A stretch of DNA of 64,000 nucleotides from Acidobacteriota bacterium (GTDB lineage: Bacteria > Acidobacteriota > UBA6911 > RPQK01 > JAJDTT01): contig CBDCJH010000002.1 in the NCBI GenBank assembly GCA_965217775.1, forward strand, positions 96,001 through 160,000, read 5' to 3'. The notes below the pieces were generated by a model that was given only the letters and a program-made list of their open reading frames with translations, was not told the origin of the DNA and searched no databases. Position numbers and translations under genes: made by a program. Positions 2,209-12,790 of the stretch are shown piece after piece; position 1 is the stretch's first letter, and every line of letters starts with the position of its first letter.

Positions 2209-2271
2209 GAGTAATGGGTGCCGGGAGTTCCTAATTCCAAAAATCTTGTGCAAATGGACGAAGAATTTTCG

Positions 2272-2289
2272 GTAGGGGCGCCTCTTGTG
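2272..2289 (+). repeat. GTAG-type REP half-site (left flank of IS481 element)
   Basis: GTAGGGGCGCCTCTTGTG; inverted counterpart at 5512-5529; complete relative at 59838-59862. Confidence 0.6.
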
Positions 2290-2380
2290 TGTACGGTATC
2301 AGGACATCGTTTACAGTTTGTATCAGGACATCCTTTACACATCAGGGTGAGAAGTAGCCTTCTTTGGGTAGGAGGTGAAG

Positions 2381-3532
2381 ATGCCCTGGAAAGTGACGAA
2401 TGTGATGGATCAGAAGATCCGTTTCGTACTTCGGGCCGTGCAGCCTGGGGCCAACATGAGCGCCCTGTGTCGGGAGTTTCAGATCAGTCGGCCGACAGGT
2501 TACAAGTGGCTGAAGAGGTATCGGGAAGCCCACAGCGTGACCGGACTGGAGGAGCGCTCCCGGCGGCCCCGGCACAGTCCGGCGAGAACGGCGGCGGCGG
2601 TGGAAGCTCGGGTGGTGGAACTGCGGCGGCAATACGGGTGGGGAGGCAAGAAGCTGCAGGTGCTGCTGGAGCGCGAAGGCGTGTCCTTGAGTGTCCCGAC
2701 GGTGAATCGGATTCTGCGGCGGCAGGGCGAGTTGGGGGAATACCAGGCGCAACGGCCGGCACCGCAACGATTCGAACGATCCCAGCCCAACGAGTTGTGG
2801 CAAATGGACTTCAAGGGGCCGTTTCAGGGCCCCGAAGGGCCGTGTCATCCGCTCTCGATCCTGGACGACTGCTCGCGGTATTCGGTGGGGTTGTATGGTT
2901 TGCCGACCACGCAAATGGATCCGGTGCAAACCTGTCTACGAAGGACCTTTGAGGGCTACGGAGTGCCGGAGGCCATGCTGATGGACCATGGGGCCCCTTG
3001 GTGGAGTACCAGCAATGGATGGGGGCTGACGCGATTGAGCGTGGAATTGATCAAGCAAGGGATCGACCTGATCTACGGGCGAGTCCGGCACCCGCAGACG
3101 CAGGGGAAGGTGGAACGATTTCATCGCACTTTGAGCGACTCGGTGGCGCACCGGGGGCGACCGCAACGGTGGCAGGAGTGGGAGCGATTTCTGCAGGACT
3201 TTCGCCAGGAATACAATCAGGTTCGACCCCATGAGTCGCTGCGGATGGAGGTCCCGGCCCAACACTACCGTCGCAGTACGCGTGGCTACGATCGGGACCC
3301 GGCTCCCTGGGAGTATCCCCGGGGGCTGCAGGTGAAACGGCTCAATCGCCGGGGGTGTTTGAGCGCGGGCGGGGACCGTTACTTTGTGTGTGAGTCCTTG
3401 GCGGAGGAGTGGGTGGGCGTGGAAGAGTTGGAAGACAAGCTGCTGGTCCGCTACCGGCACCTGTACATCCGTGAAGTCCACTTGCAGACCCGGCAGACGC
3501 GAGCTCTGGTCTGGCGGGTGGGGCAGGACTGA
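2381..3532 (+). CDS. IS481-family transposase (HTH + rve DDE core)
   Basis: MPWK start after GGAGG RBS; SALCREFQISRPTGYKW HTH; WQMDFKG, ILDDCSRY, MDHGAPW, HPQTQGKVERFHRTL and YNQVRPHESL motifs. Confidence 0.95.
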   Translation: MPWKVTNVMDQKIRFVLRAVQPGANMSALCREFQISRPTGYKWLKRYREAHSVTGLEERSRRPRHSPARTAAAVEARVVELRRQYGWGGKKLQVLLEREGVSLSVPTVNRILRRQGELGEYQAQRPAPQRFERSQPNELWQMDFKGPFQGPEGPCHPLSILDDCSRYSVGLYGLPTTQMDPVQTCLRRTFEGYGVPEAMLMDHGAPWWSTSNGWGLTRLSVELIKQGIDLIYGRVRHPQTQGKVERFHRTLSDSVAHRGRPQRWQEWERFLQDFRQEYNQVRPHESLRMEVPAQHYRRSTRGYDRDPAPWEYPRGLQVKRLNRRGCLSAGGDRYFVCESLAEEWVGVEELEDKLLVRYRHLYIREVHLQTRQTRALVWRVGQD

Positions 3533-3941
3533 AGGGTGTGGGCGGCGCGGGAGGAGGGCACCGAAGTGGCCGTCGAGAACGGTCCCCTTCCGGTTCCTGG
3601 CGAGGCCGTTCGGGGGGGGAGCCACAAGGAGGGGTTCGAGAGATTCGCCGAGGGGCCGGGATGGGGCTGCGGAGCGTCTGGAGGACCCGCAGGAGACGCC
3701 CGGTTGGGGAGCGACGAGAGGGGGCTGGTGCGAGACGATCGGGGACGGGGGAGGCGCCAGGCCGCGATCGCATGGCCGTGGGGAGTCCGCCGCCGGCCGG
3801 TCGGTCACTGGATCAAGCCGCCTGGGGGTCACCCGCCCGGTGTGGCCGCAGCGGATTTCCGGTTGCCGTGGGGCCAGCCGTCGGTGCTCATGGAGGTGAT
3901 GGGGGACCTGAATGTCAATGGCCACTGAACATTGCACACAT

Positions 3942-3993
3942 CGCTGGAGACCCCGTGGCGGTCGCGGCCGCGACCGCCACGGGGTCTCCAGCG
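3942..3993. repeat. perfect 52-bp palindrome
   Basis: CGCTGGAGACCCCGTGGCGGTCGCGG|CCGCGACCGCCACGGGGTCTCCAGCG, no loop. Confidence 0.95.
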
Positions 3994-4250
3994 GCCGGAT
4001 CTGGTCCCTTCATGCCTCCCTCCTTTCGGCTCCGGATTCCTGTGCGCCGACCGCTCGGGCGGCGGTCGGATGGATCGCCCTGGAGAGCTCGGCGTGGCGG
4101 AGCGGCCGGGGGGCCGGTTCGAACGGGAGCGGGAATGGCGAACTGCTGGGGCATCTTGGCCGGACTCAGGTTCGTTTCACTGCCGGAGCCGAGGGCGTTC
4201 CCGTCACCGGCGACGAAGCGGCCGAGGAGGGTGGACGCGAAACGCCGTCC

Positions 4251-4640
4251 CCGGACTTCGACTTCAGCCTCCAGCGATCGATTCAGCGGGAGCCGATCGA
4301 CTCGCTCGACGAGCTGGGCTTCGTGGAGCGAAGGGAGAACCTCGTCTTGCGGGGTCCGCCCGGGGTGGGCCCAACGTCTCGAGCCCTCCGCGGGGCCAAC
4401 GTCCAAGACCCGGATCCGTCCGGCACCCCTGGAGGGGGAGGAGATCGGCACCCTTAGGGTCCGCCCGAGCGGCGCGGTTCGGTTGGTCCAACGGGGGAAC
4501 CGGCGTGACGAGCCGACCTCGACGGAGTTGACCTGGAACCCGGCTCTTGAGCCCTGGGGCCAGATCCTGGGAGAGCAGGTGATGGCGGTGCTGGTGAACC
4601 GGGTTCGGCCCTGCGGCCACAGCGACCGGCGGCGCCGTGC
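4251..4640 (+). pseudogene. istB: istB (IS21 helper ATPase) pseudogene
   Basis: DFDFSLQRSIQREPIDSLDELGFVERRENLVLRGPPGVG (Walker A region). After a frame change: EEIGTLRVRPSGAVRLVQRGNRRDEPTSTELTWNPALEPWGQILGEQVMAVLVNR, a degenerate DEIGYLP..STILTSN..WG..GD.VMA..DR. Confidence 0.8.
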
Positions 4641-4920
4641 CGCCGAGCTCTCCAAGGGGGCGCCATCCGGGCGCCCTCCGAAGATGGGGTGAAGCTCTCG
4701 CCGTCGGAGCAACCGTGTCCTGAAGGCCGTCCCTTCTCAATGGCCATGGACACGGTCCGCCCAGGGCTGCGGGAGCGGGAAGGAGGGGGGCATGACGGGA
4801 CCCCGGCCGGCTACGGGGTCTCCCGCGATGGATGCCATTTTTGCGGCCGATTGACAGGGCCGGGATTCCGGCCTGTCCCCAGCGTCCGGAACCGTCACGC
4901 CGGCCGTCGGTGCGATTCGG

Positions 4921-4964
4921 AGCGAGCCTGGGGCGCCGGGTGCACCCGGCGCCCCAGGCTCGCT
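4921..4964. repeat. perfect 44-bp palindrome
   Basis: AGCGAGCCTGGGGCGCCGGGTG|CACCCGGCGCCCCAGGCTCGCT. Confidence 0.95.
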
Positions 4965-5126
4965 GTTGCAGACCCCCGCCGGCTCTGTTTTGCATGGACG
5001 TGATCCCGCCCTTGGCTGCAACCGGCAGCCGCCCTGCCTCCCCCTGACCGAAGCGGAATGACCACCGAGACCCACTTGAACCAGATGACCCAACCGTCCA
5101 CCCAAACGCGATCCCTTCAACCTACC

Positions 5127-5295
5127 GGTCCGCCCGAGCGGCGCGGTTCGGTTGGTCCAACGGGGGAACCGGCGTGACGAGCCGACCTCGACGGAGCTGA
5201 CCTGGAACCCGGGTCTTGCGCCCTGGGACCAGATCCTGGGGGGTGGTGGCGGCCCTTCTGGACCGAGACTTGTCCTGCGGCCACAGCGACCGGCG
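5127..5295 (+). pseudogene. istB: second degenerate istB 3' fragment (direct repeat of 4458-4631)
   Basis: About 110 bp near-identical to 4458-4570, plus shared CCTGCGGCCACAGCGACCGGCG. Confidence 0.75.
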
Positions 5296-5511
5296 ACGCC
5301 GCCCCGCGGAACGCTCCAGGACGATCCATCCGACGACCGCGCGAGCGGTTCGCCCAGAGGACTCCGGACCGAGAAGGCGGGGCTCCTGCGATGTATGCAG
5401 TTCTCGATGGCCCGAAGTGTGCAATTTTCGATGGTCATTGACACAACGGCCATGGACCAGCTGTAAAGGATGTCCTGATACAACTTGTAAAGGATGTCTT
5501 GATACCAAACA

Positions 5512-5529
5512 CACAAGGGTCGCCCCTAC
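5512..5529 (-). repeat. GTAG-type REP half-site (right flank of IS481 element)
   Basis: CACAAGGGTCGCCCCTAC, the reverse complement of GTAGGGGCGACCCTTGTG. Confidence 0.6.
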
Positions 5530-5723
5530 GAGAACTTCTCCCATTTTCGGTAAATTCGGCCGATTCCACTTGTCGAATCTTCTGACTCTCCTGCTTTCAA
5601 CCACTTGCGGAGATTTGACCTGATATTTTGGGGGAACTCCTGTCGGGCGGGCCGGTGCTTGAGTGCAGGCTACGGACGGAACTATGCTCTGGTTGATAGG
5701 AAAAAGACCGGAAAGGAGACCTT

Positions 5724-6179
5724 ATGGCGATCTGGCGGAGAGACCGCGACGTGGTCCGGGACGAGGATGAACGTTCGGAGAAAGCCACTCCCACCTCCGA
5801 TGAAGAGTGGAAACAGACCCTAACGGCGGAGCAGTACTACGTCTGCAGGGTGAAGGGGACCGAGCCCCCATTTTCCGGCAAGTACTACGCCAACAAGGCC
5901 GACGGCTCCTATCTTTGCGTGGCCTGCGGGAGCGAGCTCTTCAGCTCGGACACCAAGTTCGATTCGGGGACCGGTTGGCCCAGCTTTTGGGCTCCCGTCG
6001 AGAAAGAGCGGGTCGCCATGGAGACGGACGACAGCTACGGGATGAGGAGAGTCGAGGTGCTGTGCCGCGGTTGTGGGTCTCACCTGGGACACGTCTTCGA
6101 TGACGGCCCCCGTCCCACCGGCCTTCGCTTCTGTATCAATTCGGCGGCCCTGGACTTCAAGGAAAAACCAGGCAAATAA
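5724..6179 (+). CDS. msrB: peptide-methionine (R)-S-oxide reductase MsrB
   Basis: [50 protein letters not shown]; AAGGAG RBS. Confidence 0.97.
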
Positions 6180-6300
6180 CCGGGCCTTCCAGCTTTCCCT
6201 CCCGCGGCGCCGGGTCTTCCCGTGTTTTTTGATCCCGCGACGTTTTATACGAGGGATGCTTCGCACGACACCGGGCGGTGGTTGGGTGCGCGAGGGACGG

Positions 6301-6690
6301 GTGTCCCCGATCCTCGCCTGGCTCTGGAATCGACGCTTCAACCCCTCTCATGGCGACCTGGGCCGCTGGGGCGAGTGGATCGCACTGCGGCACCTGCTGG
6401 CCATGGGATGGGACGTGGTGGCCCGGAATTGGAGAGTCCGGCGGGGCGAGGTGGACCTGATCGCCTGGCACGATTCCTGGCTCGTCTTCGTGGAGGTGAA
6501 GACGAGTCTTCTCCCCTCTCCGTTTCTGCCGGAGGAGCGTGTGGACACGGAGAAGCAACGCCGGCTGGAGCGCCTCGCCTACGAGTTCGTCTGGCGCCAC
6601 GAATTGGAGGAATCGCCGGTGCGATTGGACGTTATCGCCGTCGAGACTCGGGACCAGGTTCGTTTCCGGCTCCGGCACTACGTTCTGTAA
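6301..6690 (+). CDS. yraN: YraN family (UPF0102) endonuclease-fold protein; start 6301 (GTG) or 6256
   Basis: GRWGE..A, RNWR...GEVDLIA, LVFVEVK, EKQRRL and VRLDVIAV motifs. Confidence 0.9.
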   Translation: MSPILAWLWNRRFNPSHGDLGRWGEWIALRHLLAMGWDVVARNWRVRRGEVDLIAWHDSWLVFVEVKTSLLPSPFLPEERVDTEKQRRLERLAYEFVWRHELEESPVRLDVIAVETRDQVRFRLRHYVL

Positions 6691-6705
6691 GGGGCCCGTC
6701 GTTGA

Positions 6706-6927
6706 GTCTCCGCTGCCGCGATTCAGGTTCCGCTCGCATCGACGATTCGTGATGCGGACCCCAGCGATTCAGAGGAGCGCTGGTTGACCGTGGGCGAAAC
6801 CCTGTAAGGCCAGTTGTCGGTCGTGTATCAAACTTGGCGAGAGATCGGAAACCGGATAAAAATGAGGATCATTTCAGCGCGATTTGCAACGCTGAACGAA
6901 CGGTGCCTGTACGAGTTGGGAAGATGA
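6706..6927 (+). pseudogene. BrnT-family toxin pseudogene (5'-truncated, internal TAA at 6805-6807)
   Basis: Frame from 6721 reads IQVPLASTIRDADPSDSEERWLTVGETL*GQLSVVYQTWREIGNRIKMRIISARFATLNERCLYELGR*, matching BrnT EER...G...VV.T.R...RIISAR.AT..ER..Y. Confidence 0.8.
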
Positions 6928-9900
6928 CGCAGGAGTACGATTTTTCTGCCGGCGAGCGTGGTAAGTTCTATCGTCCGAACGCCACGCTGAATCTGCCCCA
7001 ACCCATCCAGAAGTCCGACTGGGCGGATTCCAATAGTCCAATTTGCGCTTTCATTGCGGAGCAGACGAGGAACACTCTCCGGGCATACCGTGAGCAACCG
7101 CATCTCATCACCGAGCATGCCAACCACGAACACGATATCGCTCATGGCGGTTACGCTCATCGACAGCTCTTCGAGCTGGTCCAAAACAGTGCGGATGCGC
7201 TTGCCAACGCACCCTGCGGCAAGAGCATTCTGGTCCGCCTGACGGAAAACTATCTCTACTGCGCCGACGACGGGGACGCGATCAGTCAGGACGGGGTCCG
7301 AGCACTCATGTTCTCCCACATGTCGAGCAAGAGGAACACTAGTGAGATCGGGCGGTTCGGACTCGGCTTCAAATCGGTGCTGGGTGTTACGGATGCCCCC
7401 GAGTTCTACAGTCGCGCCGGCTCCTTTCGGTTTGATCGGGAATATGCGGCCGATTGCATGGCTCCGTTTGCTCCGGAGGGGCGCTTTCCGGTCCTCCGGT
7501 TGCCGGTTCCCATCGAGGTTCGAAAAGCGGCGGAAGGAGACGCTGAACTGGTCGAACTGATGACTTGGGCCACAAACATCGTCCGCCTGCCGCTGAAGCC
7601 GGGTGCAGGGGAGGATCTTGCGCAGCAGGTCCGCGGTTTTCCGCCGGAATTTCTCCTGTTTGTCGACCATGTCCGGTATCTGACCCTTGAAGGCGAGGAA
7701 CGGTCTCGGGATTTCATTCTGGAAAGGTTCAACGGCGAGCTTCGCCTCGATACCAGCGCGGGGTCTTCGCGGTGGAAGTGCTTCCAGATCACACACCAGC
7801 TTTCTGCCGAAGCCCAAGAGGACAGGCGTTCACTCGACGACAGCGGTGACGTGTCCGTCTGGTGGGCGGCGCCGTTGGACCGACTGAACGAACCGGGTTA
7901 TTTCTGGCACTTCTTCCCGACCAAGACGGCAAGTCTTCTGGCCGGGATCCTGAACGCGCCCTGGAAGACCAACGAAGACCGGCAGAACCTGTTGCCGGGT
8001 CCTTACAACGACGAGTTGATCGATGCCGCGGCGAGAATGGTGGCGAGAGGCTTGCCCAATCTGGCCGGCGAGCGGGATCCGGCACGACATCTGGATGCTC
8101 TCCCGCGCCGCTATGAAGCCGGCGACACCGAGCACAGCAACCGCCTTCGCGATCGGTTGTATGAGGAACTGCGCGGCCGGCCCGTGGTCCCCGATCAGGT
8201 CGGAACTCTGCGCAGGATACGGGGCGTTTCCTACGCGCCGTCAGCGCTGACTCAGGATCTGTCGGGGGCGGAATCGCTCCGAGAGTGGGCAGCCGCCAGT
8301 CAGCGTCCAACAGATTGGGTACACCACAGCGCACTCCGTACGAATCGGATCGCCCGGGTCAACCGGCTGTTTTCTCCGGAGCGCCGGAGTTTGACGCAGG
8401 CCCCTCGGTCGTCGATAGGAGAGTGGCTGAACGCCCTGGTCGACGGCTCGGTCGGAGCTGAGGCGATCGAGGCGTCCATGACGGCGCTCCAAGTGGCTGC
8501 GTCGATTCCGCAGGAGCTGAGGCAGGGAGCATACCTTGGCGACATTCTGCCGACGCAGAGCGGGGACTGGTGCTCGCCCGACCCGGATGGCGTGTTCCTG
8601 TCATCGTTCGAAGACGACCCGGATGCTGACGACCTCCTGGTTCATGCGCGGCTCGTGTCTGACGCAGACACTTTGGCCGCTCTGAAGGAACTTGGCCTCA
8701 AGTACGTCTCTGCCGAGAGTCATTTCCAATCCCTGGTCCGGCGGTTGTTCAGGTGGGAACGCGCATCGGTTGTAAATGGGTGGAACGAGTTCTGGGTCAC
8801 TTCGCGTGATGTGGGCACGGAAAGGGCGTACGCGATGATCAAGGCCCGGTGGGATTCGGCATGGCGGATTCAAGTGTGGACGCGGGCTCGCCATTGGCAG
8901 TCCCTGTATTCGGTCCTCCTGCCAGGTGAAATCGTGTCTTCGGCAGGCGCACGCGACAGCGACGTCACGGTCGACACCGACTTCCATCGTGCCGACCTGA
9001 AGTTGCTGGAGAGACTCGGGGTGACGGATGGGCCGAGGCCGAATCGGCAATTGTCGGGCGACCCCGCTTTCGAGTGGTTCTTGTACACCTGTCGCCGGAA
9101 GTTCACGGCTCGGGACCTTCCGAAGAAGCCGCATTGGCGCAGGCTGCAGTTCGACTCGACGGTCGGAAGTGGTCCCATGCAGGTTCTGACCCGGCTTTCC
9201 GATGAAGGCAGAGCACGATATACCGACGCCTTGCTTTCCCTGGAGACCACGTATGGCGGACGGACCCTGCGCCACGAAACTCAGCGCATCTATCCGGAGC
9301 TTCCGTGTCCGAATCCGGCGGTCGCGTTGCTGGCGGAGCATGGCCGTATCCGGTGCGCCGGTGAAATCGTTCCCCTGGCGGATGCGCTCGGTCCTCACCC
9401 CGCCAATCCTGCTGCGCTGAGTGTCCTGCTGTCGCATCCGATGGCGAGCCGAATCAGGAGAGACTTCGATCTTGCCGAGCCCGAGGTGGAACCTGTCGGC
9501 GAGGAGGACGCGGTGCCGCTGACCGACGTGTGGCCCGGTCTGGCGCCGCACCTGAGTGCGCACTCGATGACTTGTTCGCTGATCCGCTGCCTGGAACTGG
9601 TCGCGGACGGCGCCAGCGGTCCCGAATCTGCATTGGTGGACTCCAAAGTCTACCTGGTCAGGACGGATGACGAGGATCGGGAGCTGCGGCTGGTCACGCA
9701 ACGGTTGGGGCTGGATCTGAGTGACACCCAGCTCGAGAACATACGGCGATACGCAGCCCCGGAGGAAGTCGAAAGACAGCACGCGGCGATCCGGCGTCTG
9801 GCATCGGACGCCGAGAGGTTGGCCCAAGCCGTGGGGGCGGATGCCCTTCGTTCCGGTTTGCCCACGTCCCTCCTTCAGGTGCTTGAAGTCGATCGCACAC

Positions 9901-11375
9901 CGCTGACCGGCATGGAGCTGGCGGAAATGGCCATCGCGACGTTTCATACGTCCGCTCTGAAGGCGTACAAGCGGGCTTTGGAACACTTGGACCCGCCGAA
10001 ACGCTGGGCTGGATCACAACGCGCCGTTGACTTCGTCCGATCGCTCGGGTTCTCGGCGGAGTGGGCCGGACAACGGAATTCTCGCCGTCCGCCGTATCTT
10101 GATGTGGAGGGTCCGCACTCACTTCCGGAACTGCATGGTTACCAGCGCACTATCGTGGACCGGGTGCGAGACATGCTCTGCAATGGAGTCGCGGGAAACG
10201 GTGGGCGTCGAGGGATGACCAGTCTGCCTACGGGGTCGGGAAAGACGCGCGTCGCGGTGCAGGCCATTGTCGAAGCCATGCGTGATGGCTTCAATGGCGG
10301 TGTCCTGTGGGTGGCGGACCGCGACGAGCTGTGTGAGCAGGCTGTGGAAGCATGGGGGCAAGTCTGGTCCAGCGTGGGCGCTGAAGGGAAACGCTTGCGC
10401 ATTTCCAGGATGTGGGCTGGCCAGCCGCGGCCGCTGCCGGTCAGCGACCTCCACGTCATTGTCGCGACGATCCAGACGCTCAACGCCAAGTTGTCGAAAC
10501 CGCCCGGTGAATACAGTTTCCTTTCGAATTTCACCCTCGTCGTTTTCGACGAAGCCCACCGATCCATTGCGCCTACCTTCACCTCCGTCATGGAGGAGAT
10601 CGGGCTGACCCGTTGGCAGCGAAGTGAGGAGCCGTTTCTGATTGGCCTTACCGCGACGCCTTACCGGGGGCATGACGAGCGAGAAACGGCAAGGCTGGTG
10701 CGTCGCTACGGTGCCAATCGCCTGGATGCCGGGGCGTTCGCGGGCGATGAACCCGGGGAAGTCGTCCGCGAGCTGCAGGAGATGCGGGTACTGGCGCGCG
10801 CTGACCACAAAATCATCGAAGGCGGCGATTTCTCCTTGAACCGGCAGGAGTTGAAGATATTGCAGGCGATGCCTTATCCCGCCTGGTTGCCCCGTAGCGT
10901 GGAGAATCGCATCGCTCGCGACGTGGATCGAACCAAGCGTATCGTCCACGCGTACGAGAGATTCGTTGGTGATGTCAGCCCGGAGTGGCCCACGCTGGTG
11001 TTCGCCACGTCGGTGGAACACGCTCTGACGGTGGCGGCGCTGTTGAACTCTCAAGGCGTGAGGTCCAGGGCAGTGAGCGCCGCAACGGAGTCCTCCGTCC
11101 GACGAAGGATCGTCGAGGAATACCGGGCGGGAGAGATCCGGGTCTTGGTCAACTATGGCGTCTTCCGCGAAGGATTCGACGCACCCAAGACGCGAGTCAT
11201 CATCGTCGCCCGTCCCGTCTACAGTCCGAACCTCTATTTCCAGATGATCGGGAGAGGTCTGCGAGGACCGAAGAATGGCGGCAACGACCGGTGCCTGATC
11301 GTCAACGTGCGTGACAATATCGAGAATTTCGACCGCGAGCTGGCCTTCTCAGGACTGGACTGGCTTTGGGGATAG
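6924..11375 (+). CDS. fusion of antitoxin-like N-peptide, sacsin-like GHKL ATPase and SF2 (DEAH, ResIII-like) helicase, 1483 aa
   Basis: MTQEYDFSAGERGKFYRPNATLNLP; GHKL motifs ELVQNSADA, ADDG, IGRFGLGFKSV; helicase motifs LHGYQ, LPTGSGKT, DEAH, GLTATP, VFREGFDAP, QMIGRGLRG; ATG overlaps the brnT TGA. Confidence 0.85.
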   Translation: MTQEYDFSAGERGKFYRPNATLNLPQPIQKSDWADSNSPICAFIAEQTRNTLRAYREQPHLITEHANHEHDIAHGGYAHRQLFELVQNSADALANAPCGKSILVRLTENYLYCADDGDAISQDGVRALMFSHMSSKRNTSEIGRFGLGFKSVLGVTDAPEFYSRAGSFRFDREYAADCMAPFAPEGRFPVLRLPVPIEVRKAAEGDAELVELMTWATNIVRLPLKPGAGEDLAQQVRGFPPEFLLFVDHVRYLTLEGEERSRDFILERFNGELRLDTSAGSSRWKCFQITHQLSAEAQEDRRSLDDSGDVSVWWAAPLDRLNEPGYFWHFFPTKTASLLAGILNAPWKTNEDRQNLLPGPYNDELIDAAARMVARGLPNLAGERDPARHLDALPRRYEAGDTEHSNRLRDRLYEELRGRPVVPDQVGTLRRIRGVSYAPSALTQDLSGAESLREWAAASQRPTDWVHHSALRTNRIARVNRLFSPERRSLTQAPRSSIGEWLNALVDGSVGAEAIEASMTALQVAASIPQELRQGAYLGDILPTQSGDWCSPDPDGVFLSSFEDDPDADDLLVHARLVSDADTLAALKELGLKYVSAESHFQSLVRRLFRWERASVVNGWNEFWVTSRDVGTERAYAMIKARWDSAWRIQVWTRARHWQSLYSVLLPGEIVSSAGARDSDVTVDTDFHRADLKLLERLGVTDGPRPNRQLSGDPAFEWFLYTCRRKFTARDLPKKPHWRRLQFDSTVGSGPMQVLTRLSDEGRARYTDALLSLETTYGGRTLRHETQRIYPELPCPNPAVALLAEHGRIRCAGEIVPLADALGPHPANPAALSVLLSHPMASRIRRDFDLAEPEVEPVGEEDAVPLTDVWPGLAPHLSAHSMTCSLIRCLELVADGASGPESALVDSKVYLVRTDDEDRELRLVTQRLGLDLSDTQLENIRRYAAPEEVERQHAAIRRLASDAERLAQAVGADALRSGLPTSLLQVLEVDRTPLTGMELAEMAIATFHTSALKAYKRALEHLDPPKRWAGSQRAVDFVRSLGFSAEWAGQRNSRRPPYLDVEGPHSLPELHGYQRTIVDRVRDMLCNGVAGNGGRRGMTSLPTGSGKTRVAVQAIVEAMRDGFNGGVLWVADRDELCEQAVEAWGQVWSSVGAEGKRLRISRMWAGQPRPLPVSDLHVIVATIQTLNAKLSKPPGEYSFLSNFTLVVFDEAHRSIAPTFTSVMEEIGLTRWQRSEEPFLIGLTATPYRGHDERETARLVRRYGANRLDAGAFAGDEPGEVVRELQEMRVLARADHKIIEGGDFSLNRQELKILQAMPYPAWLPRSVENRIARDVDRTKRIVHAYERFVGDVSPEWPTLVFATSVEHALTVAALLNSQGVRSRAVSAATESSVRRRIVEEYRAGEIRVLVNYGVFREGFDAPKTRVIIVARPVYSPNLYFQMIGRGLRGPKNGGNDRCLIVNVRDNIENFDRELAFSGLDWLWG

Positions 11376-11452
11376 CCGTGCTGCCACTCAGGGCATGGGG
11401 GCAAGCGGCTACCGGGTCCTCCGAAGATCCGGGGTTTCGGACCGGCGGGAGG

Positions 11453-12790
11453 TCAGAACTTCCGGGTGGCCTTTCGGAAGATCTCCAGACCCTCCTGCAC
11501 GTCCTCTTCCGGCATGTTCAGCGCGGGTCGGAAGCGGATGGACCGCTCGCCGGAGGGCAGGATGAGTAGCCGGTGCCGAAAAAGGCACCGCAGGAACCGG
11601 TCCCGCGTAGGAGTGTCGGGCAGGTCGATGGCGCAAAAGGGGCCTTCGCCCCTGGCGTTGGAGAAGAGGGCAGGTGTCTCCTCGGCCAACTCGTGCAGAC
11701 CTTCCAACAGCACCCGGCCCATCCTGCGGGCGTGCTCCAGGATCCCCTCCTGCTCGTAGATCTCCAGGTAGATCCGGCACCGGACCATGTCGATGAGGCT
11801 TCCGCCCCAGGTCGAATTGATCCGCCCCGGCACCTGGAAGACGTTGTCGGGGACGTCGTCGATGCGGCCGTTGGCCATGATGCCGCAGACCTGGGTCTTC
11901 TTGCCGAAGGCCAGCAGGTCCGGCTCCGCGTAGTGCTCCAGGGCCCACATCTTTCCGGTCCCGCCCAGGCCGGTCTGCACCTCATCGTAGATGAAGAGGA
12001 GGCCGAACTCGTCGCAGATGGACCGGAGAGCTTGGTGGAACTCCCGCCGGAAATGGTTGTCTCCACCCTCCCCCTGGATCGGCTCCAGGATCAGGGAGGC
12101 GACTCGGGCCGAATTTTTCTCAAGCACCTGCCGGATCTGCCGCAGGGCCCGCTCCTCCGATTCCAGCACTGATTTGAGGTTGCCTCCCGTCAGGGGGAAG
12201 CGGCATTTGGGATTCTCGATCCGGGGCCAGTCGAACTTGGGGAAATACCGGGTCTTGTTCCGGTCGAAGGTGTTGGTGAGGGAGAGGGTGTAGCCGAGCC
12301 GTCCGTGGAAGGCCTCCCTGAAATGGATCACCTGGAGGTTCTTTTCTTCCGGGAGACCTTGGGTGCGATTCTTCCGGACCTTCCAGTCGAAAGCCACCTT
12401 GAGGGCGTTCTCCACCGCCGGGGCGCCGCCTTCCACGAAGAAGAGGTGCTTCATGGAATCGGGCAGCGCGAGGCGGCAGAAAGTGTCCACGAAGGCCCCC
12501 ATCTCGGGGGTGTACAGGTCGGAGTTGGACGGCTTGTGGAGGGCCGCCTCTCCCATTTCTTCCACCACTTCCGGGCGCGTCATGCGCGGGTGGTTGTAGC
12601 CGATGGGCGAGGTGGCGTAAAAGGCCATGAAATCGAGAAAAAACCGGTTGGTCTGGAACTCGCAGAGGCGGGACCCGCGGCTCCGGGACAGGTCGGCGAC
12701 GATCTCCACCCCGGAAGCGGGCAGATAGCGGGAGAGTATGCCGGCCGTCTCGCCGGCGTCGAGGTTTACAGTCCGTGGCGAAAGTCTCAT
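11453..12790 (-). CDS. lat: L-lysine 6-transaminase (class III PLP aminotransferase)
   Basis: HKPSNSDLYT, AVENALKVAFDWK, AFHGR.GYTLSLTNT, EPIQGEGGDNHF, DEVQTG, FGKKTQVCG and RINSTWGG motifs. Confidence 0.88.
   Translation of the reverse strand: MRLSPRTVNLDAGETAGILSRYLPASGVEIVADLSRSRGSRLCEFQTNRFFLDFMAFYATSPIGYNHPRMTRPEVVEEMGEAALHKPSNSDLYTPEMGAFVDTFCRLALPDSMKHLFFVEGGAPAVENALKVAFDWKVRKNRTQGLPEEKNLQVIHFREAFHGRLGYTLSLTNTFDRNKTRYFPKFDWPRIENPKCRFPLTGGNLKSVLESEERALRQIRQVLEKNSARVASLILEPIQGEGGDNHFRREFHQALRSICDEFGLLFIYDEVQTGLGGTGKMWALEHYAEPDLLAFGKKTQVCGIMANGRIDDVPDNVFQVPGRINSTWGGSLIDMVRCRIYLEIYEQEGILEHARRMGRVLLEGLHELAEETPALFSNARGEGPFCAIDLPDTPTRDRFLRCLFRHRLLILPSGERSIRFRPALNMPEEDVQEGLEIFRKATRKF

Follow-up and report, generated by a model that had tools for sequence, protein, structure and literature searches.

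A brnT pseudogene upstream of a Tiamat-like ATPase-helicase with an antitoxin-type N-terminus: a probable degenerate copy of a conserved toxin/‘giant antitoxin’ module in Acidobacteriota

Why should a protein of 1483 residues, built as an ATPase and a helicase, begin with the peptide of a small antitoxin and follow directly upon the remains of a toxin gene? The question is raised by a locus within a 64 000-nucleotide stretch of the genome of an Acidobacteriota bacterium (GenBank assembly GCA_965217775.1, contig CBDCJH010000002.1, positions 96 001–160 000 of the forward strand), hereafter the window, in which a broken gene of the BrnT toxin family overlaps the start of the large gene. We consider it probable that what is preserved here is a decayed copy of a conserved module consisting of a BrnT RNase toxin and a ‘giant antitoxin’, that is, an ATPase-helicase of defence type which bears an antitoxin peptide.

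The brnT remnant lies at positions 6706–6927 of the forward strand and was recognized by Pfam (PF04365), by a scan of the organism's own genome and by alignment with the intact BrnT proteins of homologous loci. The frame from 6706 translates as VSAAAIQVPLASTIRDADPSDSEERWLTVGETL, followed by an in-frame TAA (6805–6807, forward strand) and by GQLSVVYQTWREIGNRIKMRIISARFATLNERCLYELGR up to the terminal stop; with X placed at the TAA, it matches the Pfam family BrnT_toxin at 38.1 bits (cut-off 34.5; E 1.9e-9), over profile positions 24–77 of 77 only, the 5' third of the gene (approximately the first 23–25 profile positions) being gone. An independent scan of the whole genome for the BrnT family found the same site (36.9 bits, one TAA) and three other brnT genes, all of them intact. 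In an alignment with 22 intact BrnT proteins of related loci, the remnant lacks approximately the first 27 residues, and the invariant W6, K10, N14, K17 and H18 of the intact proteins fall within this missing part. Because only profile positions 24–77 are left, the frame contains a TAA, and the start codon and 5' part have been lost, so that there is no complete uninterrupted BrnT frame, we regard the remnant as a pseudogene; an earlier note on this DNA, made from the sequence alone, had likewise read it as a BrnT-like frame with one internal TAA and no 5' part. The TAA is spanned by contigs of three public sequencing runs (X1, X2 and X3) with 0 differences to the window, and contigs identical to the window may stem from the source sample. 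Among public-run contigs taken at 90 % likeness, one contig in each of runs X1, X2 and X4 has the joint 6700>6845, and one contig of run X3 has the joint 6683>6954; these deletion joints are larger losses of the brnT remnant in related strains or populations. The TGA of the remnant (6925–6927) overlaps the ATG of the large gene (6924–6926) in an ATGA, as the same note had seen, and the frame that follows is free of stops.

The large gene (6924–11375, forward strand) is intact and, from its frame, its matches in Pfam, PADLOC and NCBIfam and its homologues, encodes in order an N-terminal peptide, a sacsin/Tiamat-type GHKL ATPase, a middle region and a superfamily 2 (SF2) helicase. The automatically assigned start of the reading frame is TTG 6834 (1513 residues), but the position equivalent to 6924 is the start in 106 of the 120 best homologues. 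Residues 1–25 from that ATG (6924–6998, forward strand) are MTQEYDFSAGERGKFYRPNATLNLP and correspond by homology to the N-terminal segment of small CopG/BrnA-type antitoxins, presumably a toxin-binding tail. A word-based search with residues 1–40, restricted to shorter proteins and with E values calculated against 5.8 billion sequences, retrieved proteins of 64–70 residues with 76–88 % identity over the first 25 residues (E 5e-6 to 1e-3). The antitoxin-family match anticipated for the peptide was found in this indirect form: several of the small proteins carry a precomputed PF12441 CopG_antitoxin assignment, one that was scanned directly (P0128) gave E 2.3e-5 (25.5 bits, under the cut-off of 28), and residues 1–40 of the large protein alone had no match in Pfam or NCBIfam. 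The homology stops after residue 25, directly past the motif LNLP, at which point the small proteins run on through VYLD into the strand of their ribbon-helix-helix (RHH) part and the large protein continues into its ATPase; the RHH DNA-binding domain that belongs to CopG/BrnA-type antitoxins (PF12441/PF14384) is absent from the large protein. Eighty metagenome loci encoding the small antitoxins were fetched, and the 74 with at least 300 nt of upstream sequence were assessed with a hidden Markov model (HMM) built from the BrnT genes of large-protein loci. Directly upstream of the small antitoxin, 56 had a full-length BrnT, nine a partial one and nine none. Since full BrnT precedes the antitoxin in 56 of the 74, the peptide can be identified as the N-terminus of antitoxins that follow brnT, as which it had been recognized when the sequence was first read. 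The antitoxins of the three intact brnT loci in the same genome are of the ordinary type, none beginning EYDFS, and these loci offer no in-genome partner for the peptide. The sequences point to an origin by fusion into a brnT–antitoxin operon after about codon 25, with replacement of the RHH domain, in agreement with the earlier suggestion that a helicase gene had recombined into a brnTA operon and taken over its start. A small antitoxin gene of the EYDFS type is also present on a Leptospira interrogans plasmid (NZ_CP043878.1; L073, locus 886–1401), where it is annotated ‘hypothetical protein’ and is preceded, at a place where no gene is listed, by a BrnT-like C-terminal remnant (..RIVSARPATNSEKAQY..) with stops; similar matches occur on 17 Leptospira plasmids.

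Is the combination peculiar to this genome? Among 8000 scored candidates, 1906 are relatives of the large protein at E<=1e-3, and the best 120 homologues, mostly of 1458–1561 residues (two are shorter, 1152 and 1369), share 56–93 % identity with it. The motif M-x-x-[EQDKG]-Y-[DNE]-[FL]-x stands at the start of 106 of these 120, and one more begins RYDFS; homologues with the shared start and peptide come from at least seven phyla. A collection with one genome for each species yielded 656 candidate stretches; a relative is encoded in 625 of them, which gives at least 625, and the best-scoring 66 were taken as genome loci. These are metagenome-assembled genomes of Acidobacteriota, Binatia, Spirochaetia, Gemmatimonadota, Latescibacterota, Alpha- and Gammaproteobacteria and Chloroflexota. 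Toxin genes were called with Pfam on 98 upstream reading frames and with a BrnT HMM on all upstream frames, and the two were concordant. The peptide is present in 43 of the 66 loci. Directly upstream of it BrnT is intact in 30, broken in eight (L007, L008, L009, L011, L013, L019, L021 and L033) and absent in four (L010, L014, L028 and L058), and one locus (L038) meets a contig edge; full-length homologues that keep both the peptide and an intact upstream brnT, which the earlier note had proposed to look for, are thus found in 30 of the 43 peptide-bearing loci. In 25 of the 30 loci whose BrnT is intact, the toxin gene's stop and the ATG start of the large gene overlap, and the pair is adjacent, co-oriented and coupled by stop and start, as in type II toxin–antitoxin (TA) systems, both there and, through its ATGA, in the window. 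One could suppose that the fusion is a one-off, or that the start has been mis-called, the true start lying downstream and the peptide being untranslated debris of brnTA. The operon is indeed destroyed in the window, and a promoter scan found 0 sigma-70-like sites in 6000–11700; against this stand the same start and peptide in so many homologues of at least seven phyla, and the fact that the peptide evolves as coding sequence. We give this explanation hardly any credence, and a one-off fusion artefact was rejected on the 106 homologues and 43 loci with the peptide; the earlier note had allowed for such an accident should neither peptide nor brnT recur in any homologue.

Clustering of all flanking reading frames in 67 loci revealed no second conserved neighbour besides the toxin, the next commonest cluster being present in six of the 67. 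Because the toxin is the only conserved flanking gene, there is no separate antitoxin gene. PADLOC defence models matched (E<=1e-10) within approximately 3 kb in seven of 24 sampled loci, in which 103 reading frames were scored. A superfamily 1 (SF1) helicase protein of approximately 1260 residues (AAA_30, UvrD_C_2) stands directly upstream of brnT in six of 67 loci; one of these proteins (L015:1866–5657) gives, along its entire length, a match of 1443.8 bits to PDC-S68, a candidate system of PADLOC. In a Terriglobia locus (L063:5623–6663), the intact BrnT frame continues past the start of the large gene and the length of the match is not a multiple of three, which suggests a frameshift or an assembly indel near the junction.

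The 23 loci without the peptide include only one with BrnT, and that BrnT is divergent. In this locus, on a SAR202 contig (L069:135–690), the divergent BrnT is followed by a large protein with an acidic start (DDEIDTTDIPE..DW), which we take to be typical of classical BrnA/DUF4415 antitoxins, although no family model matched it. Other N-termini occur as well. Two homologues of 1538 residues (P0101 and P0122) have, in place of the EYDFS peptide, a different N-terminal domain of approximately 60 residues (MKENLSESQF...YLRIIDESEEDYLYP) with no match in Pfam and no usable match in the ESM Atlas, which may be a further partner-binding module. In many Chloroflexota homologues, as seen in in-frame extensions upstream (L039, L040, L044, L047, L048, L060–L062 and L072), an N-terminal stretch rich in Lys and Arg (e.g. 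MAKRKKRNRKQK...) replaces the antitoxin peptide, and there is no toxin gene upstream.

A second, independent toxin/peptide pair was found in two Chloroflexota loci (L049 and L065). Here the upstream gene encodes a RelE/ParE toxin of TIGR02683 (upstrm_HI1419; E 5e-37), and the large protein matches, over its first 50 or so residues, the N-terminal half of the antidote TIGR02684/PF21716 (dnstrm_HI1420; E 1.4e-10 and 2.2e-8). These loci resemble the HI1419/HI1420 system in that the toxin stands upstream and the antidote is represented by its first half, joined to the large protein; they differ from the window, where this other toxin family is not present. A further locus (L018) has a peptide of the HI1420 type and a truncated toxin. 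In a FastTree phylogeny of 54 large proteins, from which the first 60 residues had been removed and for which the midpoint root served for drawing only, EYDFS-bearing proteins lie on both sides of that root, and the L049–L065 pair is nested, with 100 % support, inside a 14-member Chloroflexota clade without EYDFS. Peptide type co-varies with toxin family, BrnT versus HI1419, the one following the other, and a toxin–peptide pair has been gained on at least two occasions. Tree and taxonomy are in conflict, Spirochaetia standing beside Binatia and Gemmatimonadota beside Latescibacterota, and spread of the module by horizontal transfer fits this conflict.

What, then, is the machine to which the peptide is attached? 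Residues 42–477 (7047–8354, forward strand) match the PADLOC model of Tiamat (TmtA, PDLC03964; E 8.2e-60, profile positions 11–428 of 1538), the PADLOC check having been proposed in the earlier note. Within this region, residues 80–162 (7161–7409, forward strand) form the GHKL ATP-binding core (sacsin-type NF047352, 64.7 bits, cut-off 50), and its motif residues E84, N88, D91, D115, G117, G143, G146 and G148 do not vary among 30 aligned homologues. The SF2 helicase/translocase core occupies residues 1069–1447 (10128–11264, forward strand), with Pfam matches to ResIII (residues 1069–1248, E 2.7e-24) and Helicase_C (residues 1352–1447, E 3.1e-12); Walker A (PTGSGKT), DEAH (1209–1212), TATP and QxxGRGxR are invariant or nearly so in the same 30. 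Judged by these motifs, both ATPases appear active. No nuclease family was found in the large protein by Pfam at E<=1, and the first reading of a sacsin-like GHKL ATPase and a DEAH helicase with no visible nuclease holds. A housekeeping role as a DNA-repair helicase of the RadD/UvrB kind, without part in any conflict, has in its favour that the best NCBIfam row is RadD (E 5.9e-27) and that the gene is set among the housekeeping genes msrB, yraN, aminotransferase and cysS. The RadD match scores 94.2 bits against a cut-off of 720 and covers the helicase core only; the gene is single-copy in the genome, its distribution is patchy and transfer-like, and the protein combines the helicase with a Tiamat-type ATPase and is toxin-linked, all of which makes such a role very improbable. 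Orthology with RadD or UvrB was rejected on these scores, that of the UvrB family being 18.5 bits against a cut-off of 743.

The architecture is that of a recently described class. According to a preprint (Yuan et al., 10.64898/2026.09.30.754977), Tiamat of Bacillus cereus is an ATPase that cleaves single-stranded DNA (ATPase/DNase), and bacterial ‘Tiamat-like’ proteins often have a UvrB-like SF2 helicase in place of the nuclease, a form termed ‘Type III-A’ and described there as bacterial only. The protein of the window shares with Type III-A an N-terminal Hsp90/sacsin-type GHL ATPase (supported by the TmtA and NF047352 matches), an extensive middle region and, in the C-terminal place of the nuclease, an SF2 helicase. 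With Tiamat itself (TmtA, a single-gene anti-phage system in PADLOC and DefenseFinder) it shares the N-terminal 430 or so residues (E 8e-60); unlike Tiamat, it lacks the C-terminal PD-(D/E)xK (DUF3883) nuclease and a match along the full profile, carries a helicase at its C-terminus and belongs to a family accompanied by a toxin gene. The preprint calls the Type III-A helicase ‘UvrB-like’, whereas the best matches here are ResIII and Helicase_C, with a RadD-like core. The middle region (residues 480–1060, approximately 580 residues; 8361–10103, forward strand) has no Pfam match at E<=1 and is predicted to be well folded (AlphaFold model of residues 440–1060, mean predicted local distance difference test (pLDDT) 86). 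Foldseek found no match to this model in the PDB at E<=0.001. Model residues 157–263 weakly resemble helical-repeat folds (best Z 5.0, root mean square deviation (rmsd) 2.5, 65 aligned), and residues 859–946 (model 420–507) weakly resemble zincin-like metalloproteases (Z 3.4–4.2), namely 3e11_B (Z 4.2, rmsd 3.4, 68 aligned) and Wss1 (Z 3.4–3.8); no HExxH motif is visible in the translation of residues 859–946. DUF3684 of Tiamat is reported to comprise TPR-like repeats, a fold that is conserved and a metalloprotease-like one that is inactive (Yuan et al., 10.64898/2026.09.30.754977), with which the predicted folds are compatible, the weak zincin-like match agreeing with the last of these.

Whether the peptide binds the toxin was approached through structure prediction. 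In an AlphaFold model of residues 1–480, residues 1–27 have pLDDT <50 and no secondary structure, the chain is well ordered from about residue 30 and most of the ATPase core is confident; further low-confidence stretches are residues 131–148, 323–356 and those beyond 420. Such predicted disorder of residues 1–27 is what one typically sees in a tail that becomes folded on its partner. When the BrnT of an intact locus (L032) was co-folded with the first 50 residues of its partner, the score was 0.34, against 0.00 for the best of three controls, with run agreement in at least 81 % of contacts and a partner pLDDT of at least 52. Of 157 solved complexes, 116 attained the mark applied, as did two of 215 mismatched pairs; at 0.60 or below, it was reached by only 18 of the 157 and by both mismatched pairs. 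As the PDB contains no similar complex (a lone toxin chain, 7vd7_A, was found, and no small-antitoxin match), the score does not reproduce an already solved structure. Co-folding thus lends weak support to binding of BrnT by the peptide; the main arguments for the predicted binding are indirect, namely antitoxin homology outside the DNA-binding domain, co-variation of peptide and toxin, and the lack of any other antitoxin.

In intact modules, the first gene encodes a small BrnT-family RNase toxin and the second, its start overlapping the stop of the first by ATGA, a protein of about 1480 residues, and our working hypothesis is that the disordered N-terminal tail of this protein would most likely bind and neutralize BrnT. 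The RNase would act, on this tether, as the effector of a Tiamat-like protein whose own nuclease has been lost; we know of no effector of the helicase-bearing Type III-A forms. Sensing of nucleic acid by the ATPase/helicase might change or occupy the N-terminus or, alternatively, a phage might destroy or block the large protein; either trigger would free the RNase, whereupon growth would stop and infection would be aborted. In GyrB, MutL and Hsp90, the GHKL domains undergo ATP-driven N-terminal dimerization, for which the extreme N-terminus serves as a strap; a specific option is that use of the N-terminus as a strap would compete with toxin binding. In the window, the toxin gene is dead through 5' truncation and a stop, and the ATPase-helicase survives alone. 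We infer toxin release and anti-phage defence by the module; a role in defence is favoured with moderate confidence, on the kinship with Tiamat, the linkage to toxins, the transfer-like spread and the PADLOC neighbours in seven of 24 loci. The earlier note had also offered a TA system with a large sensor ATPase/helicase as antitoxin that releases an RNase toxin: of this, the conserved pairing of toxin and peptide-bearing protein is upheld, and sensing and release are conjectural.

Several observations weigh against this interpretation, foremost those from the clade of the window itself. In all five members, the window and its four closest relatives (L007–L010, with large proteins 84–93 % identical to that of the window), brnT is broken and the large gene intact. 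The five damaged copies do not share one lesion. L007 has a frameshift near BrnT profile position 60; L008 and L009 have a 5' deletion larger than that of the window, directly after the same yraN gene; and in L010 a few brnT codons are left behind a HicB-like reading frame. The latter, an antitoxin-like frame (L010:5586–5840; PF15919, E 3.3e-12), stands directly upstream of the large gene. The ratio of nonsynonymous to synonymous substitution rates (dN/dS) of the large gene is 0.31 against L007, 0.23 against L008 and 0.21 against L010, with each domain below 0.5, and codons 1–30 give 0.10–0.43 (few sites) in these compared lineages without a working toxin; the peptide persists without the toxin, which a model of the toxin as pure effector does not predict. 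More widely, 12 of the 42 assessable peptide-bearing loci have a broken toxin gene or none, and the 66 loci, being the best-scoring of at least 625, are not a random sample. A whole Chloroflexota clade lacks both peptide and toxin. Seventeen of the 24 sampled loci have no neighbour matching a defence model, in a comparison scored without a control set. The PADLOC match to TmtA is limited to profile positions 11–428 of 1538, roughly the N-terminal quarter, and the likeness of the middle region to DUF3684 is weak (Z 3.4–5.0). The predicted binding draws on homology and one weak co-fold score, and we know of no anti-phage activity for any Type III-A protein.

Since the toxin has been lost repeatedly and the large gene stays under selection, the large protein functions without the toxin, which is the dispensable half; as the large gene is still under purifying selection here, it must also have a function independent of the toxin, most likely DNA/RNA surveillance or restriction. 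This is also the ground on which the main rival explanation stands, namely that the brnT/peptide pair is a selfish device that serves addiction only, stabilizing the large gene because a cell in which that gene was lost or truncated would die for want of its fused antitoxin, with the toxin outside sensing and defence and the ATPase-helicase doing separate work. Compatible as it is with the module proposed here, it would accommodate the repeated loss of the toxin beside an intact, selected large gene, including a pair of loci with nearly identical large proteins (L058 and L064, branch lengths 0.005) of which only L064 has brnT. It would likewise accommodate the exchange of toxin types (BrnT, HI1419) and the occurrence in unrelated contexts of many phyla with conflict between tree and taxonomy, as for a mobile unit. 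Addiction normally needs a labile antitoxin, whereas one of 1480 residues is costly and shows no sign of instability. Moreover, the peptide has been kept in the compared lineages without toxin, and addiction leaves unexplained why an RNase toxin was recruited, at least twice, by a Tiamat-like protein without a nuclease. We think it rather unlikely that addiction is the whole explanation.

The persistence of the peptide where brnT is dead, and its position directly ahead of the ATPase domain, could alternatively mean that it has been co-opted into the GHKL machine, e.g. as a dimerization strap, and no longer binds toxin, BrnT being kept for translational coupling or regulation. The intact BrnT genes are under purifying selection (dN/dS 0.14–0.37 in eight pairs) and would then be without an antitoxin. 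Co-option also sits poorly with the co-variation of peptide type and toxin family, with the entire clades that manage without such a peptide and with a co-fold score above all controls; we judge it distinctly unlikely. The reading that we prefer, of a toxin paired with a giant antitoxin and here deprived of the toxin, is the one that we set beside known systems below.

With brnTA modules whose antitoxin is of the CopG type (PF12441) and begins EYDFS, the module shares the toxin family, the toxin-first order, the overlap of stop and start and the first 25 residues; it differs in that the RHH domain of the antitoxin is absent and an ATPase-helicase of 1450 residues takes its place. Because the large protein lacks an RHH domain, the autoregulation reported for BrnA would not be possible by that route (Gerdes, 2025; PMC11980606). 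In the accessible text of that survey of RelE/ParE-superfamily toxins, which covers BrnT–BrnA fusions, the word ‘helicase’ is absent. The main text of the preprint on Tiamat contains ‘BrnT’ and ‘DUF497’ 0 times and ‘antitoxin’ once, where PIN domains are discussed in general; its supplements may list neighbours (Yuan et al., 10.64898/2026.09.30.754977). Given the absence of BrnT and DUF497 there, the upstream toxin and the antitoxin-derived peptide are new relative to that main text. RtcR-associated CoCoNuT systems have been described with BrnT-like toxins directly upstream (Bell et al., 2024; PMC11090510) and resemble the present module in that a BrnT-like RNase gene stands in the same direction immediately before a large multi-domain defence gene; the downstream proteins there are of McrBC type and unrelated, and the accessible text of that paper reports no antitoxin-peptide fusion. 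Full-text literature searches returned nothing on this brnT/ATPase-helicase module, and a term search of the preprint on NO VEIN had no match. In Hachiman, the nuclease HamA is held inactive by the helicase HamB until triggered. The likeness would be one of working only, a helicase/ATPase sensor restraining a nuclease effector: homology does not extend past the SF2 core, the effector in the present module would be a TA-type RNase on a short peptide, and HamB is not among the best 25 of the 31 PADLOC matches of the large protein (P0001). The two-gene module with its antitoxin-peptide fusion appears to be new, the toxin family and the Type III-A architecture being already known.

In the window, the module adjoins on its upstream side a gene of the UPF0102/YraN family (6073–6690, forward strand; PF02021, E 8.4e-21), as first noted, and this neighbour recurs in L008 and L009 in DNA alignment. 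Downstream lies a class-III aminotransferase gene on the reverse strand (11453–12790; PF00202, E 1.1e-73), which recurs in four loci. The impression that the large gene is less GC-biased than its neighbours is true of third codon positions (GC content 0.72 versus 0.76–0.86) and not of overall GC content, which is equal (0.619 versus 0.61–0.64). Rfam gave no match in 2500–12000. A 3.2-kb element at about 2272–5513, 1.4 kb upstream of the brnT/large-gene module, is present in the genome in six copies that are 99–100 % identical. It is bounded by inverted repeats of approximately 70–85 nt (2252–2339, minus strand, versus 5462–5546; 84 % identity) and encodes an IS481-type transposase (2375–3532; rve, HTH_32, LZ_Tnp_IS481). 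About 2 kb of it are without a family match, two long frames tested there having none in Pfam and Rfam giving nothing, and this part contains an internal direct repeat of approximately 200 nt (4449–4654 and 5118–5318).

The finding at the level of the family is of more interest than the toxin-dead copy of the window. For the large GHL ATPases, to which Tiamat and its relatives belong, among them plant NO VEIN and human sacsin, a mode of action is only beginning to emerge, and an upstream RNase toxin together with a peptide of 25–50 residues offers a testable effector or control mechanism for Type III-A, with a defined predicted binding site. It appears that a type II antitoxin can be split and its presumed toxin-binding peptide moved onto an unrelated machine of 1450 residues, at least twice and with toxins of different families. 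That the toxin has decayed repeatedly beside a retained large gene is a natural experiment on which half gives the lasting benefit. Since many of the records are metagenome-assembled genomes of many phyla, and the gene tree disagrees with taxonomy, the module marks recent gene exchange in those communities. It is interesting to speculate further, and we do so tentatively, that Tiamat-like ATPase-helicases might constitute a ‘giant antitoxin’ family in which swappable peptides (EYDFS/BrnA, HI1420 and others) tether cognate small RNase toxins, which the conformational cycle of the GHKL-helicase, driven by ATP and nucleic acid, would release on phage attack. If so, TA modules would act as plug-in effectors for a sensor without a nuclease, and the sensor would outlive the decayed toxin; such a family would form a direct evolutionary and mechanistic bridge from TA systems to the large defence ATPases.

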